From a virus (taxonomy: Duplodnaviria > Heunggongvirae > Uroviricota > Caudoviricetes): a stretch of DNA of 44,197 nucleotides. The notes beneath the pieces were generated by a model, which was not told where the DNA came from, ran no database searches, and saw nothing but the letters and a program-made list of their open reading frames with translations. Location of the stretch: the IMG/VR virus record IMGVR_UViG_2563366948_000003. One strand, 5' to 3'. Every line of letters starts with the position of its first letter. Within the stretch, counting starts at the first letter, position 1. Below are positions 5,801-44,197 of the stretch, one piece after another. Made by a program: the position numbers and the translations under genes.

Positions 5801-6065
5801 AGGTGCGCCCGTCGTCCTGCAGTTCGTAACGATCACACCAGGTGAAATCAACTTCACCTTCTTCCGGCAGGTCGTCATATACCGGGAAATCGGTGCGGAT
5901 TGGTTTGGCATAATCTTTACCGCGGCCAGTTTCTTCAATTCCGGCTTCTTCCAGTGCCACATCGAGTTGGAGATTGGCGCGCGCTACACTTTTCGCAGTG
6001 AACCAAATCACTGCATCTTTCTTGCCAGACTTCTGACTGGCTTTTATCAGATGGAAAAATTCCAT
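2835..6065 (-). CDS. recE: RecE-like exodeoxyribonuclease VIII (large multidomain protein with C-terminal PD-(D/E)XK nuclease)
   Basis: Long ORF (1111 codons in the track). Likely start is the internal ATG at 6065, preceded by an AGAGGA RBS. C-terminal ~250 aa carry a nuclease-like D...E/D-x-K context (RPDLEIDLDG...DLKT). Position upstream of a RecT-like gene matches Rac-type recET modules. Contains three tandem ~20-aa coding repeats. Confidence 0.6.
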   Translation of the reverse strand: MEFFHLIKASQKSGKKDAVIWFTAKSVARANLQLDVALEEAGIEETGRGKDYAKPIRTDFPVYDDLPEEGEVDFTWCDRYELQDDGRTWLPKAAGDVVTTIPADVKNTDEVATSDENVSLENRTPAVRFAFHLMSDKYQTHVTKEQQLTASEMSLDESNTYLQNLLQVKNDVPEVGELSLNAEWKMIQAIKDIFEQGEEHGPEVIAAFMSDWVNAEAGDRNQLVEDWRSGRFPLLKTETTSVGDEVGTEEQSQQPDQPNLIVVATLPFRQRVLAQFIGDGEYLYHIDAGQKNEIVRLEMDTDDTYIQNLLLAAENVEAFKKAIEHDIHKVVNAVKKVFPVDGKKPELATVIQFLTVWFNTDYIDRGLLVKEWQKGNRVAQIQRTDVKTNAGGGNKTDRNTDYVHTLDTLDVEIALATLPMDFNIYDIPGGVYRRAKEIVSKKESPFSEWSEALRKTAGILDYSRAAIFALIRGTSSELVNFPGRLRAYINANLTENDHSNPSEETLADAGHASDVSWENEVNEQVAAEQKTAAKQPQIANMGNGVFSIDGLMGDQQTQTDNRSPLNEETTSNVQMEETVSDEEQAGDEVQSGESSLETGEESHTGQQADVSQNADSVSQNSDSVNQTEPVAAQTEPEAQSDEPGVVYPAYFEPGRYEGLPNEVYHAANGISSTQVKDARVSLMYFNARHVEKTIVKERSSVLDMGNLVHALALQPEQLDEEFSVEPVIPEGAFTTTATIRAFIDEYNASLPAQLSADDIKALLDEYNATLPALVPLGASLDETAQNYMALPAEFQRIDADQKKTATAMKACIKEYNATLPAQIKTSGSRDALLEQLAIINPDLVAQEAQKLQPLKVSGTKADLIQAVKAVKPDAVFADELLDAWRNNPEGKVLVTHQQLATAQAIQSALLSHPTAGMLLTHPSRAVEVSYFGFDEETGLEVRVRPDLEIDLDGVRIGADLKTISMWNVKQESLRARLHREIIERDYHLSAAMYCETAALDQFFWIFVNKDENYHWIAIIEASAELLELGMLEYRKAMRNIATGFDTGEWPAPITADYTDELNDFDLRRLEALRTQA
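3600..3870. repeat. Three in-frame tandem direct repeats inside the RecE-like gene
   Basis: DNA motif GCGCTGGCAGGGTGGCGTTGTA(C/T)TC occurs three times (~3604, ~3752, ~3810). It encodes repeated peptide EYNA(S/T)LPAQ/L. Confidence 0.7.
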
Positions 6066-6203
6066 GTGAGATCCTCTTTTTTGAGTGTTAGAATCCCCGG
6101 GCCAGAGATAGCGCCCATTGGATGTTTTTTGGTTTGGTATAAATTCCGGTGTAACTTTGGTCGGTGGCACCGGACGTGAATCCCGCCTTGCGCGGGGTTT
6201 TCG

Positions 6204-19116: not shown

Positions 19117-19180
19117 AACGCATATATTTCATGTAAATCTGATATCGTCGCCATAGCTTCGTAGGTCGACAAAGAATTAA

Positions 19181-19210
19181 GAGCCTCGCCATCGTGCGGG
19201 GCTTTTTTAT
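19181..19210 (+). terminator. Putative intrinsic terminator (imperfect stem) downstream of the Q-like gene
   Basis: GAGCCTCGCCATCGTGCGGGGCTTTTTTATTT: GC-rich imperfect hairpin plus T-run. Confidence 0.5.
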
Positions 19211-39661: not shown

Positions 39662-40804
39662 ATGCCGTTTAAACGACCGACGCTGAGCGAACTCCGCGAC
39701 GGAAACCGGAAATTTATGCAGGCGGAGCTTGAGGATGTTGGTGCGCTCCTGCGCTTCGCGAACCTGAAGGTACTGGCTGACATGGATGCGGGGATGGGGC
39801 ATCTGCATTACGCCTACCTTGACTATATTGCCCTGCAGACAAACCCGTTTACCTCTACCGATGAGTATCTCGCCGGGTGGATGGCCCTTAAGCAGGTATT
39901 CAGAAAACCAGCTGCAGCGGCGAAGTCGCCTGCGGTACAGGCTAGTGGCAGTGTTGACTGTATTATCCCTGTTGGCTCGATCATTAACCGCGGGGACGGA
40001 TACCAGTACCGGACGGATGCAGATCTTAAAATTCAGGCAGATGGATTTGGTATCGTCGCGGTGACGGCCATACTGCCGGATATTACCAGTGATGTAACGG
40101 GTGGAGGCGCGCGCGGTAACGCTGATGCCGGGACCATAATGACCCTGGACGCGAATATTGCTGGCGTGGATCCACAGGTAACGTTACTGTCCGCTGCGAC
40201 CGGCGGAGCCGATATTGAAACGGAAGAGGATTTTCGCAGTCGTGGCTTGCTGGCATGGCAGAATCCGCCTCAGGGTGGAAGCGACGCCGATTATAAAAAA
40301 TGGGCGCTTGAGGTTTCGGGCGTCACCCGCGCGTGGGTAAAGCGGCGTCTGAACGGGGCCGGGACCGTTGGCGTGTATATCATGTGTGATCGGAATGACA
40401 ATGGTGGGTTTCCGGTCGGTACCGACGGAATATCCCAACTTGAGGACTGGGGGGCTGTTAAAGCCACCGGAGACCAGCTCGCTGTCGCCGACCACATCTA
40501 TCCGCAGCAGACAGACACTGCCATTGTTTTCGTATGTTCCCCGATCAAGAAAGTCATCAATATTGAAATCTCTGGGATCAAAAATGCCGACAGCACCACA
40601 GTTCAGGGGATAAAAGACGCGCTGACGGCGCTGTTTTTTGATGAAGCTAACCCTGATGGTTCCGGGAAAGTTTACCTCTCTGATATTAACGGGAGTATCG
40701 GCGGTGTTAGCGGCACGACGGGCTATATTCTTAACTCTCCGACGGCCAATATCACCTTTGCTGTTGGCGAAATTCCGGTGCTTGGCGGGGTGAATTTTGT
40801 ATGA
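39662..40804 (+). CDS. Baseplate J-like protein (Mu gp47-like)
   Basis: 381-aa product from the ATG at 39662. Baseplate-J-like size and position. The track ORF is over-extended upstream. Confidence 0.75.
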   Translation: MPFKRPTLSELRDGNRKFMQAELEDVGALLRFANLKVLADMDAGMGHLHYAYLDYIALQTNPFTSTDEYLAGWMALKQVFRKPAAAAKSPAVQASGSVDCIIPVGSIINRGDGYQYRTDADLKIQADGFGIVAVTAILPDITSDVTGGGARGNADAGTIMTLDANIAGVDPQVTLLSAATGGADIETEEDFRSRGLLAWQNPPQGGSDADYKKWALEVSGVTRAWVKRRLNGAGTVGVYIMCDRNDNGGFPVGTDGISQLEDWGAVKATGDQLAVADHIYPQQTDTAIVFVCSPIKKVINIEISGIKNADSTTVQGIKDALTALFFDEANPDGSGKVYLSDINGSIGGVSGTTGYILNSPTANITFAVGEIPVLGGVNFV

Positions 40805-41394
40805 GCCTCTTTTCAAAAAATGATTATGCCGGTGCGCTTGGTGCGCTGCTACCGACGGGCAGGGCGTGGCCCCGGTCGCAAAGAACGGTACAGGCTGCGG
40901 TATTACGGGCACTAGGCAGCGCGTTTCAGCGTTCTGACAACGATGCGCAAAGCCTGATTACTGGTGCTTTTCCCCCTACAGCGACGGTAATGTTGTCAGA
41001 ATGGGAAAGCTCTCTGGGGTTACCAGATGATTGTGCGATTGGTGAATCCGGTGGCGTCAGCGATCGCCAGCGCGCCGTGGTGGCAAAGTTAATCAGCACC
41101 GGCGGCCTGAACCGCGATTATTACATCCGGGTGGCTGCAGCTCTTGGTTATACCATCACTATCACACAGTTCCGGCCCGCTATGAGTGGCATGTCAGTAT
41201 GCGGTGATGCGCTTAACGGTGACGAGTGGCCATTTACCTGGCGGATAAATGCGCCACAAACAACGATCAAGTATTCGCTTGCTGGCGCGTCCTACTGCGG
41301 AGATCCGCTCGCATCGTGGGGCAATAAACAACTGGAGTGTTCAATCAACAAAATTGCCCCATCCCATCTGAACATCATTTTCAATTATTCATAA
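40801..41394 (+). CDS. Tail protein (Mu gp48 / YmfQ-like, DUF2313)
   Basis: 197-aa ORF preceding the tail-fibre gene, as ymfQ does in e14. Confidence 0.65.
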   Translation: MSLFSKNDYAGALGALLPTGRAWPRSQRTVQAAVLRALGSAFQRSDNDAQSLITGAFPPTATVMLSEWESSLGLPDDCAIGESGGVSDRQRAVVAKLISTGGLNRDYYIRVAAALGYTITITQFRPAMSGMSVCGDALNGDEWPFTWRINAPQTTIKYSLAGASYCGDPLASWGNKQLECSINKIAPSHLNIIFNYS

Positions 41395-41445
41395 CTGATA
41401 TTTCCCCCTCTGATTTTATCGCTTAACACTAAGTGAGGATTAACT

Positions 41446-42063
41446 ATGCTCCGAATCGGGCAAGTCGAAGCCACTGCAACGCAGGATGGCAAATATACTG
41501 ATGGAAGTGTTGCTGGTGGTATTGCCGCAACGAGGCTGCGGGCAGCAGCGTTTAATGCCATGCAGGAAGAGTTAGCGCATATCGTAGAGTCAGCAGGATT
41601 GGCACTCGACATTAACGATATGACTCAGGTTTTAAAAGCCATTCAAAAACTCACACTGAGCCGTGCAAACCCATTTGCCGATATCAAATCAGATGGTGCA
41701 GCGGCGATTTCTACGGCTCTCACAAACCTTGGTTTGGGAGAAGCGGCAAAACGGAATGTGGGAACAGGAGAAAATCAGATACCTGATATGTCAGCTTATT
41801 CATCAGGATCTGGCTGGCAAAAATTGCCTGATGGTTCAATTGAACAGTGGGGAAGAATTAATTTCCCGAATAACGCCGCGGCGGTATCTACAAATGTGAC
41901 TTTCACCATTCCTTTTACGCAGGAGCCAGACGTAGTGATTGTATATGACGGCGGTTTTGGTGGTGGGAATATGTGGGGCGCAACTAACTGGACGAAAACA
42001 GGTTTCGTTGCTCATTGTAACTATGGCTTTGAAGGTGGAGCCTTCTACGCGAAAGGGCGTTAA
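41446..42063 (+). CDS. Tail fibre protein (constant N-terminus plus variable C-terminus inside the invertible segment)
   Basis: N-terminal tail-fibre-like region. The recombination crossover site lies within the gene at ~41717-41742, so the C-terminal ~110 aa are encoded inside the invertible DNA. Confidence 0.7.
   Translation: MLRIGQVEATATQDGKYTDGSVAGGIAATRLRAAAFNAMQEELAHIVESAGLALDINDMTQVLKAIQKLTLSRANPFADIKSDGAAAISTALTNLGLGEAAKRNVGTGENQIPDMSAYSSGSGWQKLPDGSIEQWGRINFPNNAAAVSTNVTFTIPFTQEPDVVIVYDGGFGGGNMWGATNWTKTGFVAHCNYGFEGGAFYAKGR
41717..41742. promoter_or_regulatory. Left invertase crossover site (gix/hix-like)
   Basis: CTCTCACAAACC-TT-GGTTTGGGAGAA with central dyad CAAACC-TT-GGTTTG. The 13-15 nt GGTTTGGGAGAAG arm recurs inverted at 43564-43576. 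Confidence 0.55.
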
Positions 42064-42065
42064 TT

Positions 42066-42506
42066 ATGAAATATTTGTATGTTGATAATCTGGCGTACCC
42101 TTATGCCCTCCAGTCTGTTTACGCTGCAAAAGGCCAATGGCCCGAAGGTAAAGGCGTGGATATAGACGAAGCTATTTTCAGGGAATATTTCCATGATACG
42201 CCGCCTGACGGTAAGTACAGAATTACCGGAGACGATGGAATGCCAGCATGGGCAGATGTTCCACCGCCAACACGTGAAGAACAAATTGCATCAGCCGAAA
42301 CTAAAAAGCAGCAATTGATTAATCAGGCCAACGATTATATGAACAGTAGACAATGGGTTGGTAAAGCGGCTATTGGTCGTCTGAAAGGTGAGGAACTGGC
42401 GCAATATAATTTGTGGCTGGATTATCTGGACGCACTGGAGCTGGTCGATACTTCCAGTGCACCAGATATTGAATGGCCTACTCCTCCGGCAGTTCAGGCC
42501 AGATGA
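42066..42506 (+). CDS. tfa: Tail fibre assembly protein (Tfa)
   Basis: C-terminal motif LWLDYLDALELVDTSSAPDIEWPTPP is typical of Tfa chaperones. Directly follows the fibre gene. Confidence 0.8.
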   Translation: MKYLYVDNLAYPYALQSVYAAKGQWPEGKGVDIDEAIFREYFHDTPPDGKYRITGDDGMPAWADVPPPTREEQIASAETKKQQLINQANDYMNSRQWVGKAAIGRLKGEELAQYNLWLDYLDALELVDTSSAPDIEWPTPPAVQAR

Positions 42507-43080
42507 CATCCGGCGCGGTGCTGGTATCTGTTGCCGTCACCGCGTCAATGTAATCCAGCACGGCGTTAAGTCGGGTTGTTTCTGCCTGCGTCAACTTCCG
42601 TCCGGCCTGTAATTTCAGCTGAATCAGACTAATGGAAGCCATTGCTGCATTAATCAGTGACTGGCGCTGTGCTTCTGCCGCGTCTAGTGCGGCGCTATGC
42701 TGTGCCTCGGTATCCGTCACCCATTTCTCACCATCCCATTTATCGTATGGCGTTAACGGGGCGATAGTGGTTGTATTTTCAGGGTAATCACCCGGAACTG
42801 TGATTTCTTTGGTATCTCCCGTTTCGGTACTATAGACAACTTCACCGCGATGGTCTGGCACATATTCCCATGAATTTAAATCTACAGAGCGACAGATTGC
42901 ATAACCAGCTTTATGTGTACCTGGTGCATCCAGACAGGAACATGCCGGGATACCGACTCCGACAGCGAGATATTCAGTTGATGTAGAAATATATTCCCGC
43001 GTTTCGCCATCATAGTTATGTACGATGATTTCCCCATCATTTAAAGCGTAACCGTCTTTTCCCAAAATAGCCTGTTCCAT
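42478..43080 (-). CDS. tfa: Alternate tail fibre assembly protein (Tfa'), minus strand
   Basis: Tfa motif (LNAVLDYIDAVTATDTSTAPDVIWPELP). Convergent with the plus-strand tfa, overlapping it by 29 nt. Confidence 0.8.
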   Translation of the reverse strand: MEQAILGKDGYALNDGEIIVHNYDGETREYISTSTEYLAVGVGIPACSCLDAPGTHKAGYAICRSVDLNSWEYVPDHRGEVVYSTETGDTKEITVPGDYPENTTTIAPLTPYDKWDGEKWVTDTEAQHSAALDAAEAQRQSLINAAMASISLIQLKLQAGRKLTQAETTRLNAVLDYIDAVTATDTSTAPDVIWPELPEE

Positions 43081-43596
43081 TTATGCAGCCCTCACAATGT
43101 AGTTAAATGCAATGTTTCGCGGGCTACCATCACCGGCGCCGGAACTGACATGATTTGTTCTATTCATTCGTTTACTGTCATTTGTTGTTCCACTCCCATC
43201 CTTCCACGAATACAATAACCCGCCATCGCCAATGCTCAACTGCACCGCAAATACGGATGACATGGATGAATAAACATCACTAGCCATGAGTGGGTTGCCG
43301 GTCCATCCCTGCATTTCATGGTTATGTTCAAGGATAGATGCTGCCTGACTTGAAAGTAGCAGTCTCGCGGAATCAACACCTCGCCCATCATCCCACCCGC
43401 GAATAAACTCACCGCGCAAATCCGGTAATTTTAACTTTGGGTAAGCCTTTGCCAGTTTTGGGTACTCTTCGGCAGAAAAAGGTGCACCGTTGCATTTCAG
43501 CCAGCCTGTTGGTGGTGTGGCTGAAGGCCACGGAACAGGCACCCCAACGGGTAATGCCGAACCTTCTCCCAAACCAACCTTTTTTATAACCATCAA
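43081..43596 (-). CDS. Alternate tail-fibre C-terminal (receptor-binding) segment, expressed after inversion
   Basis: Minus-strand ORF whose 5' end crosses the right crossover site. Encodes GLGEG, matching the LGLGEA junction in the plus-strand fibre. Not an independent gene in this orientation. Confidence 0.6.
   Translation of the reverse strand: MMVIKKVGLGEGSALPVGVPVPWPSATPPTGWLKCNGAPFSAEEYPKLAKAYPKLKLPDLRGEFIRGWDDGRGVDSARLLLSSQAASILEHNHEMQGWTGNPLMASDVYSSMSSVFAVQLSIGDGGLLYSWKDGSGTTNDSKRMNRTNHVSSGAGDGSPRNIAFNYIVRAA
43564..43589. promoter_or_regulatory. Right invertase crossover site (gix/hix-like), inverted relative to the left site
   Basis: TTCTCCCAAACC-AA-CCTTTTTTATAA. Reverse complement shares GGTTTGGGAGAAG with the left site. 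Confidence 0.55.
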
Positions 43597-43648
43597 AAAT
43601 CTGGTGATGCTTCGCCGTTTCTCCTGTTTTCATAACAGGAGAAATCCC

Positions 43649-44197
43649 ATGATTTACGGTTATGCCCGAGTATCAACAAACCACCAGGACACTGAATTGC
43701 AACTAACGGCGCTCAAGTCAGCGGGTTGTGAGAAAATTTTTGAAGAGCATGCCAGCGGGAGGAAATCGAATCGGCCGGTTCTAAAACGGCTGATCGCCAC
43801 TATGCAGCCGGGGGATGAACTGGTGGTCTGGAAGCTGGACAGGATAGGCCGCAACGTTCTGCATGCGCTGTTGATGTTCCAGCAGTTACAGGAAAAGGGT
43901 ATCAACTTCCGCAGTATTACCGATGGCGTGGATCTCAAAACAGCCAGCGGCCGCTATAACTTTCGTAACATCCTTTCCGCAGCACAATATGAATCTGATC
44001 TTAATAGCGAACGTACCTTAGCAGGGCTGGCCGTAGCCAGGGCAAAAGGGCGAGTTGGTGGTCGCAGGCCTAAGTTCACGGATGAGCAATGGCGGGAAAT
44101 GGGGGAGCGGATGGCAACCGGTGAATCACGACAAAGCGTATCAAAAACGTATGGAGTAGGGCTCTCAACTCTGTATAAAAAGTTTCCAGCTAGCTGA
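43649..44197 (+). CDS. pin: Serine DNA invertase (Hin/Gin/Pin/Cin family)
   Basis: MIYGYARVSTNHQDTELQ...LVVWKLDRIGR...GINFRSITD...GRVGGRRPKF...LSTLYKKFPA closely parallels Gin/Hin (recalled). AGGAGA RBS. The track ORF is over-extended upstream. Confidence 0.9.
   Translation: MIYGYARVSTNHQDTELQLTALKSAGCEKIFEEHASGRKSNRPVLKRLIATMQPGDELVVWKLDRIGRNVLHALLMFQQLQEKGINFRSITDGVDLKTASGRYNFRNILSAAQYESDLNSERTLAGLAVARAKGRVGGRRPKFTDEQWREMGERMATGESRQSVSKTYGVGLSTLYKKFPAS

Follow-up and report, generated by a model that had tools for sequence, protein, structure and literature searches.

Is the fibre locus at the right-hand end of the prophage record IMGVR_UViG_2563366948_000003 a switch that exchanges the receptor-binding end of the tail fibre, and which enzyme would operate it? 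A sequence-only reading of the whole 44,197-nucleotide stretch (the window) had placed an invertible tail-fibre segment with a Hin/Gin-family invertase at 41717-44197. The first of these coordinates is the first base of the left crossover site, and the second is the end of the invertase stop codon and the last base of the window. Our analysis indicates that the segment is very likely a two-state, site-specific inversion switch of the Din type (Hin/Gin/Cin/Pin) for the receptor-binding end of the prophage fibre. The invertase that adjoins it, as placed by sequence comparison, is a member of the PinL clade of phage phi80 and not a Pin or Gin orthologue.

A repeat finder applied to the region returned one long inverted pair, with arms at 41708-41743 and 43563-43598 (36 nt, 75% complementary). 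In the register of the Din-family 26-bp sites, this pair gives a left, pix-like crossover site at 41717-41742, reading CTCTCACAAACC TT GGTTTGGGAGAA on the + strand, and a right crossover site at 43564-43589, reading TTCTCCCAAACC AA CCTTTTTTATAA. The central dinucleotides occupy 41729-41730 (TT) and 43576-43577 (AA) on the + strand, and the segment between the site centres is 1,847 bp. Dyad symmetry is 10/12 in the left site and 6/12 in the right. In inverted orientation, 20 of the 26 bases are identical between the sites, including an identical stretch of 15 nt that comprises the inner half-site, the central dinucleotide and one more base; the outer half-sites differ. This stretch includes GGTTTGGGAGAAG, the core that the sequence-only reading had taken the two inverted sites to share. 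The repeat finder bears out that claim, as does the count of the 14-mer TTCTCCCAAACCAA, which has exactly two copies in the 44-kb window, one per strand, against a mean of 0.41 matches in shuffled sequence even with 2 mismatches allowed. The locus thus carries, far above chance, what defines a Din-type pair: two imperfectly palindromic 26-bp sites, inverted and with the same asymmetric central dinucleotide. The fibre region has two sites only, and a layout of three or more sites, as in p15B Min or a shufflon, was not found there.

Two other repeats in the window were considered. The only other near-matches to the 14-mer, at 5900-5913 and 6129-6142 (- strand), are direct near-copies with 2 mismatches each, 229 bp apart; both fall in the 5′ part of the recE-like gene, some 36 kb away, and probably reflect chance or an internal protein repeat. 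The hairpin-arm 10-mer TTCTCCTGTT has three exact copies in the window, the third at 41763-41772, 38 bp inside the left site. This copy was rejected as an accessory site of the kind found in resolvase res sites: of 91 related sites a single one carries the exact motif, the others reading AACAGGGGAA and similar, and the copy is therefore taken as a by-product of GTGEN codons.

Between the crossover sites lie two convergent cassettes of a fibre tip and a Tfa chaperone, as had been claimed and as the open reading frames (ORFs) and Pfam matches confirm. In the window orientation the expressed fibre (41446-42063, + strand) has 205 aa. Its residues 1-98 are constant, and residues 99-205 form the variable tip A, which is gp53-like (Pfam Gp53-like_C at residues 126-195). 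The left site falls within this ORF, at codons 91-99 (ALTNLGLGE), again in agreement with the sequence-only reading. Chaperone A follows in the same orientation as tip A (42066-42506, + strand; 146 aa; Pfam Caudo_TAP, E 4e-32). Chaperone B (42478-43080, - strand; 200 aa; Caudo_TAP, E 1.3e-31) converges on it, and the 3′ ends of the two genes overlap by 29 nt. Fibre tip B, of the collar-domain type, occupies 43081-43563 on the - strand, within an ORF that extends to 43596 (Pfam Collar, E 4.9e-15). It has no N-terminus of its own and is silent in the window orientation; inversion makes it residues 99-259 of the fibre. The serine invertase said to adjoin the segment is indeed there, outside it, at 43649-44197 on the + strand, with its ATG 72 nt downstream of the right site.

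When the segment is flipped in silico, the fibre frame continues across the junction and yields an in-frame ORF of 259 aa. Natural alleles match this product. The evidence on orientation comes from comparison between genome assemblies and not from within one culture. Over all 3,397 bp compared, the flipped arrangement runs collinear and gap-free, at 97.9% identity, with an IMG/VR prophage of 44,121 bp (L034); the fibre of L034 and that of E. coli PCP06171 (L002) differ from the predicted 259-aa protein by a few substitutions only. E. coli AREA_C483 (L001), in turn, is collinear with the native window at 97.0%, also gap-free. In L001 and L002 the prophage occupies one and the same chromosomal position, beside yciI/tonB. 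The two agree fully in their invertase, YmfQ-like and baseplate-J proteins, but have the segment in opposite orientations. L003 is flipped like L034 and L002, while the window shares the native state with L001. The flipped alleles keep the outer half-sites where the native ones have them, and the G or C immediately inward of each site has travelled with the segment. Exchange must therefore have taken place within the 15 shared bases.

Both states recur in wider samples. Among RefSeq complete E. coli genomes matching at least 80% of the length, 1 record has the native layout and 4 the flipped one. Among IMG/VR loci of PinL type, about 12 have the collar cassette next to the invertase (silent) and about 16 have it next to the constant part (expressed). 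The simple two-site layout was found in 40 of 75 PinL loci, with segments of 1,183-2,566 bp (median 1,842 bp), and more than two sites were seen in none of the 75 when up to 2 mismatches were allowed. Thus, the proposal that inversion swaps the fibre C-terminus together with its chaperone agrees with the in-frame flip and with the naturally flipped alleles in near-identical prophages. The sequence-only reading had also stated that it would fail if deep sequencing only ever showed one orientation; as far as assemblies allow, both occur among near-identical prophages.

The segment also differs in sequence from those of the closest relatives. The flanks (40801-41716 and 43590-44197) are 99.2-99.8% identical to theirs, but the interior (41743-43563) only 94.7-96.8%. 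Furthermore, cassettes and constant fibre parts of many kinds occur next to one and the same invertase gene, identical in DNA. It seems that prophages exchange the segment as a unit, with the sites as its borders.

The invertase has 182 aa, with a Pfam Resolvase domain (E 3.6e-39) followed by HTH_7. Its best solved relative is Gin (3UJ3, a match over the full length, E 1.4e-56), against 4e-25 for gamma-delta resolvase; it is thus a small serine recombinase with a C-terminal helix-turn-helix, nearer to invertases than to resolvases, as expected of a Din-type enzyme. The N-terminus reads MIYGYARVST, with Ser9 as the catalytic serine. Loss of the active-site serine in the YARVST motif, which had been named as evidence that would count against a switch, is not seen: Ser9, Arg7, Arg42, Asp64, Arg65 and Arg68 are present in the window protein and in 48 of 48 PinL clade members. 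The GRRPK arm and the recognition helix (STLYKKFPA) match those of PinE. Overall, identity is 55% to PinE and 51% to Gin, against 76-100% to the PinE or Gin query for our collection of Gin/Pin-type proteins. Among deposited phages (tblastn), the window enzyme is 100% identical to the mEp237 invertase and 99.5% identical to the PinL of HK225 and phi80, and most other phage invertases (99 of 112 records) are below 60%. Three features place it in the PinL clade: it is nearly identical to phi80 PinL, has the leader hairpin IR3 in common with it and adjoins a phi80-type attachment site. Sites and cassettes are common to the Pin and PinL kinds: in L003, the enzyme next to this same segment is of Pin type.

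Chimeras between the two kinds exist in nature. In three mEpX1-like loci, L073 (= mEpX1), L078 and L080, residues 1-60 are of Gin/Pin type and the remainder is PinL. In L064, residues 1-147 are PinL and the DNA-binding domain is of Gin/Pin type, with the Gln-Arg-Leu Fis patch.

For each of the two states there is an in-frame fusion and a natural allele, and the catalytic residues are intact. With this anatomy, the switch would work as follows. Fibre residues 1-98, which end in LGLGE, are encoded by the constant 5′ part of the gene; this part is not within the segment and would be transcribed with the baseplate genes. Inside the segment, two promoterless cassettes in opposite orientation would each supply a fibre tip and the matching Tfa. 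The window orientation would give the 205-aa fibre with the gp53-like tip and the 146-aa Tfa. PinL, presumably the enzyme responsible for flipping, would bind both 26-bp sites as dimers and then bring them into synapsis, as other serine invertases do. It would cut at the central AA/TT dinucleotides via Ser9, rotate and religate. The chemistry of the reaction is surely that of the Din family, and the expectation of cleavage and subunit rotation is taken from Hin/Cin-type systems (PMC3798978, PMC4513852). After inversion, the 259-aa fibre with the collar-domain tip and the 200-aa Tfa would be made. We infer that flipping proceeds at a useful rate in this strain and that tips A and B bind different receptors. 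Particles of two adsorption specificities would thus come from a population of lysogens.

Such invertible fibre tips are a bet-hedging device of temperate phages over host receptors. A different beneficiary has a small chance of being the main one, namely the host, for instance through a fibre-derived protein that blocks a phage receptor. The e14 P segment offers a precedent, as its inversion has been shown experimentally (PMC4272514; PMC12529663) and StfE2, made after PinQ-driven inversion, is reported to block T2 adsorption (PMC12529663). Close relatives of the genes concerned are present here: the DNA of window tfaB is 90% identical to e14 tfaE over 529 nt, and that of the collar tip is 84% identical to stfE over 189 nt. 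In contrast to e14, the present element looks like a complete phage. Since it encodes a complete phage gene set, the fibre has a virion to sit on, which favours a switch of prophage host range. A host-protective role besides host-range switching is possible, the two roles not being mutually exclusive.

A frozen relic is also to be considered: the segment would once have been invertible and would now be static, with PinL too poorly expressed or without an enhancer, and the orientations of the strains would be old and fixed. A number of observations weigh on this side, against a switch at work today. Each assembly shows one orientation only. Further points concern the control of the reaction, the expression of the enzyme and the fate of its gene in other phages.

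The sequence-only reading had suggested that the 5′ part of the invertase gene be examined for a Fis-dependent enhancer. We compared 48 PinL-type genes with 87 distinct Gin/Pin-type genes, which served as positive control, 40 of the Gin/Pin type being used in the synonymous-site control. In the Gin/Pin set, synonymous differences fall to 0.20 over codons 4-12 and to 0.27-0.29 over codons 22-33, the two places where Fis sites are known; the overall value is 0.40, and that of the 3′ half about 0.5. This set also has a conserved Fis-like pair at nt 30/78. In the PinL set, codons 1-18 alone are constrained (0.32-0.37 vs 0.53). Codons 19-27 are unconstrained (0.60), the clade shows no synonymous-site constraint at the canonical distal Fis position, and no conserved 48-bp Fis-like pair was found by crude Fis scoring used beside conservation. 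In the window gene, the distal Fis register (nt 71-85, CAGCGGGTTGTGAGA) lacks the G at -7 and the C at +7. Our simple Fis score (G/C ends, YR steps, AT centre) gave known Gin/Pin sites 9-10/13, like many other positions; since real sites were not separated from background, the score was used only alongside conservation. Thus, of the suggested enhancer a proximal Fis-like sequence was found, and it says little because the codons of the RVSTN catalytic motif force it, while the distal site and the conserved pair were not.

The protein was compared as well. Hin contacts Fis via Gln151, Arg154 and Leu155, and enhancer DNA via Lys47, Lys/Arg48 and Lys/Arg51, and these residues have been described as uniquely conserved in Fis-dependent invertases (PMC3798978). 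The equivalents of Gln151, Arg154 and Leu155 are invariant in the 87 Gin/Pin-type proteins and variable in the 48 of PinL type; the window enzyme has Glu, Glu and Arg. At the positions of Hin Lys47, Arg48 and Lys51, the Gin/Pin-type proteins are basic throughout, using one, two and two residues, respectively. Among the 48 PinL-type proteins, Lys47 is kept in 46, position 48 is often Arg or Lys, and position 51 is non-basic in nearly all. The window enzyme has Lys, Arg and Ala there, so the helix-B Lys51 is replaced. It therefore does not carry the full set of Fis- and enhancer-contact residues of Fis-dependent invertases.

Helix E differs as well: it reads GRYNFRNILSAAQYESDLNSERT in 46 of the 48 PinL-type proteins, with a single substitution in each of the other two, and GRFFFHVMGALAEMERELIVERT is nearly invariant in the Gin/Pin type. 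Compared with Hin, the PinL motif keeps the essential Phe106 and has Asn for Phe105, Arg for His107 and Ile for Met109. Phe105 is a 'lock' residue of Hin, and the F105N mutant is hyperactive and cleaves without Fis (PMC4513852). Tentatively, and with more doubt than confidence, the PinL clade may be a naturally rewired invertase in which the Fis/enhancer invertasome is unused or used differently. As the Fis-contact residues and the distal-site constraint are lacking, dependence of PinL on Fis and enhancer is unproven.

Expression may be limiting too. A conserved leader with two hairpins (43603-43645, + strand) lies between the right site and the ATG of the invertase. The small hairpin spans 43603-43616. 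The larger one, at 43617-43645, has a 12-bp stem, forms a 25-bp palindrome as DNA and is the element annotated as IR3 in phi80; its 3′ arm holds the Shine-Dalgarno sequence of the invertase (AGGAGA, 43637-43642). The leader RNA folds at -24.9 kcal/mol (z -4.5), and none of 200 shuffled sequences was as stable. Across 16 diverged PinL-type leaders with varying flanks the larger stem is invariant, except for one base pair at its foot that changes on both sides. A good sigma-70 promoter for the invertase was not found in the promoter scan, and promoter and terminator scans gave counts no higher than in shuffled sequence. Because the ribosome-binding site is buried in a stable hairpin and no good promoter was found, PinL expression may be very low. 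Our hypothesis is that the hairpin over the ribosome-binding site keeps PinL translation low, and flipping might be controlled by very low translation in place of Fis and enhancer. The outer hexamers of the 25-bp palindrome (TTCTCC...GGAGAA) copy those of the crossover site; as DNA, the palindrome could be a putative PinL-binding operator.

Finally, the module can degenerate. In phi80 and mEp237 the same invertase is an orphan: one crossover site upstream and fibre-tip fragments remain, and with a single site nothing can invert. The phi80 pinL gene (L254 5001-5549) is a nonsense mutant with its stop at codon 173, inside the recognition helix, and to judge from this its product is probably inactive.

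These points notwithstanding, the relic reading is unlikely. The window has the invertase, the two sites and the two cassettes in intact form. Both states occur among prophages with 99.7-99.8% identical flanks and an identical invertase, which speaks for recent flips, and across loci the two states are about equally frequent. Moreover, the helix-E motif and the leader are strongly conserved across clade members that are 62-100% identical. Although inverted repeats are able in principle to recombine, RecA-dependent general recombination across the 15 shared bases, without the invertase, is a highly improbable source of the flipped alleles: so short a contiguous identity is generally held insufficient for efficient homologous exchange, the repeats match experimentally defined Pin crossover sites at 22-24/26 with a polar AA/TT centre, a dedicated invertase adjoins the segment, and identical breakpoints recur in many independent loci.

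The Din-type fibre switch thus favoured sits in a prophage that the window covers whole, from a tyrosine integrase gene at 1-1194 to the invertase gene at the end. The early genes are lambdoid and include those for RecT, a RecE-like exonuclease, a repressor-like helix-turn-helix protein and replication protein O. The late genes encode a lambda-type terminase, portal, capsid E, a tail sheath and a Mu-like baseplate (gp44-48 equivalents). A baseplate wedge gene of the Mu gp48 / e14 YmfQ type (40801-41394, + strand; Pfam Phage_Mu_Gp48, E 1.2e-32) stands directly upstream of the fibre gene and belongs to the constant context outside the segment. The fibre proteins and the invertase matched no specific NCBIfam family. 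The element is apparently a complete prophage of mixed build, with a phi80-type integrase and attachment site, lambdoid early genes, a lambda-type terminase, portal and capsid E, and a contractile tail. Compared by megablast with deposited phages, its structural half has no close relative (best coverage 9%), so that the element as a whole has no characterised phage with which to be compared. A full-length Rfam match to the Hfq-binding small RNA isrJ (68.7 bits, gathering 37) lies at 19132-19205 (+ strand), between the early and late genes.

At the level of the switch itself there is little new, since invertible fibre tips are textbook matter and related cassettes are found in about half of complete E. 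coli genomes. The locus does give a function to PinL, which is known in phi80, HK225 and mEp237 as an orphan gene beside a solitary site, and shows it in its working context, next to a complete and apparently working segment. The PinL clade has Pin-type sites and cassettes, yet it differs at the Fis/enhancer interface and the dimer-to-tetramer lock as defined in Hin. With the same sites and cassettes but different interface and lock residues, PinL is therefore a natural comparison for the restraint of serine invertases. The natural Gin/Pin-PinL chimeras already define swappable modules.

Among known systems, the P segment of e14 (ymfQ-ycfK/stfP-tfaP-tfaE-stfE'-pinE) is the closest, with the same gene order and orientation as the window. 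Here too the tfa genes (tfaP and tfaE) overlap by 29 nt, and the segment is 1,797 bp (PMC12529663), against 1,847 bp in the window. StfP/YcfK (209 aa) is 36% identical end to end to the 205-aa window fibre (E 2e-20), and the NLGLGE motif, with its crossover site, stands at the same place in both. The e14 YmfQ protein is 35% identical to the window's gp48-type protein (E 2e-38). The left and right sites are identical at 24/26 and 22/26 bases, respectively, with the same AA/TT centre. Gene order, a short fibre that has the left site at its LGLGE hinge, and the StfP and YmfQ homologies make the proposed analogy with an e14-type host-range switch a close one. The differences are that the constant parts (gp48 and the fibre N-terminus) are merely 35-36% identical, that the invertase, at 55% to PinE, belongs to another clade, and that e14 is a defective remnant in icd, whereas the window prophage looks complete and lies at the phi80 attachment site.

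That site links the window to phi80 and mEp237. In these phages pinL is the last late gene before attP/int, giving a pinL-tonB junction in the prophage, and its position in the window is the same. This accounts for int standing first and the invertase last in the window, and for the place of the prophage by tonB. The leader hairpin IR3 and the right-hand site of phi80 are the same as in the window. In contrast to phi80, the window has PinL beside a complete two-cassette segment, in a contractile-tail phage.

The Mu G segment (S-U / U'-S') follows a shared logic: a constant fibre N-terminus outside, two convergent sets of tip and chaperone inside, the invertase just past the right site, and gp45-gp48 baseplate genes upstream, of the type seen in the window. 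The Mu sites, however, are identical to those of the window at 17/26 bases and have a GA centre, Gin is 51% identical to the window invertase, and Mu has a much longer fibre (505 aa by the S coordinates) and a G segment of about 3 kb. Mu is also a transposable phage, whereas the window phage uses a tyrosine integrase. The Mu G segment is thus more distant from the window switch than the e14 P segment is. Salmonella Hin/hix and P1 Cin/cix have the same protein architecture, catalytic residues and 26-bp site design as the window, and differ in that the PinL clade does not conserve the features that mark their control by Fis and enhancer. Hin, besides, flips a promoter and not a coding end. Therefore, of the e14/Mu-type system that the sequence-only reading had named, the architecture holds and the Pin/Gin-type enzyme, at 51-55% identity, does not. 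The segment is an e14/Mu-type fibre switch, of a well-known kind, with a phi80-type PinL, an enzyme that has been little studied.

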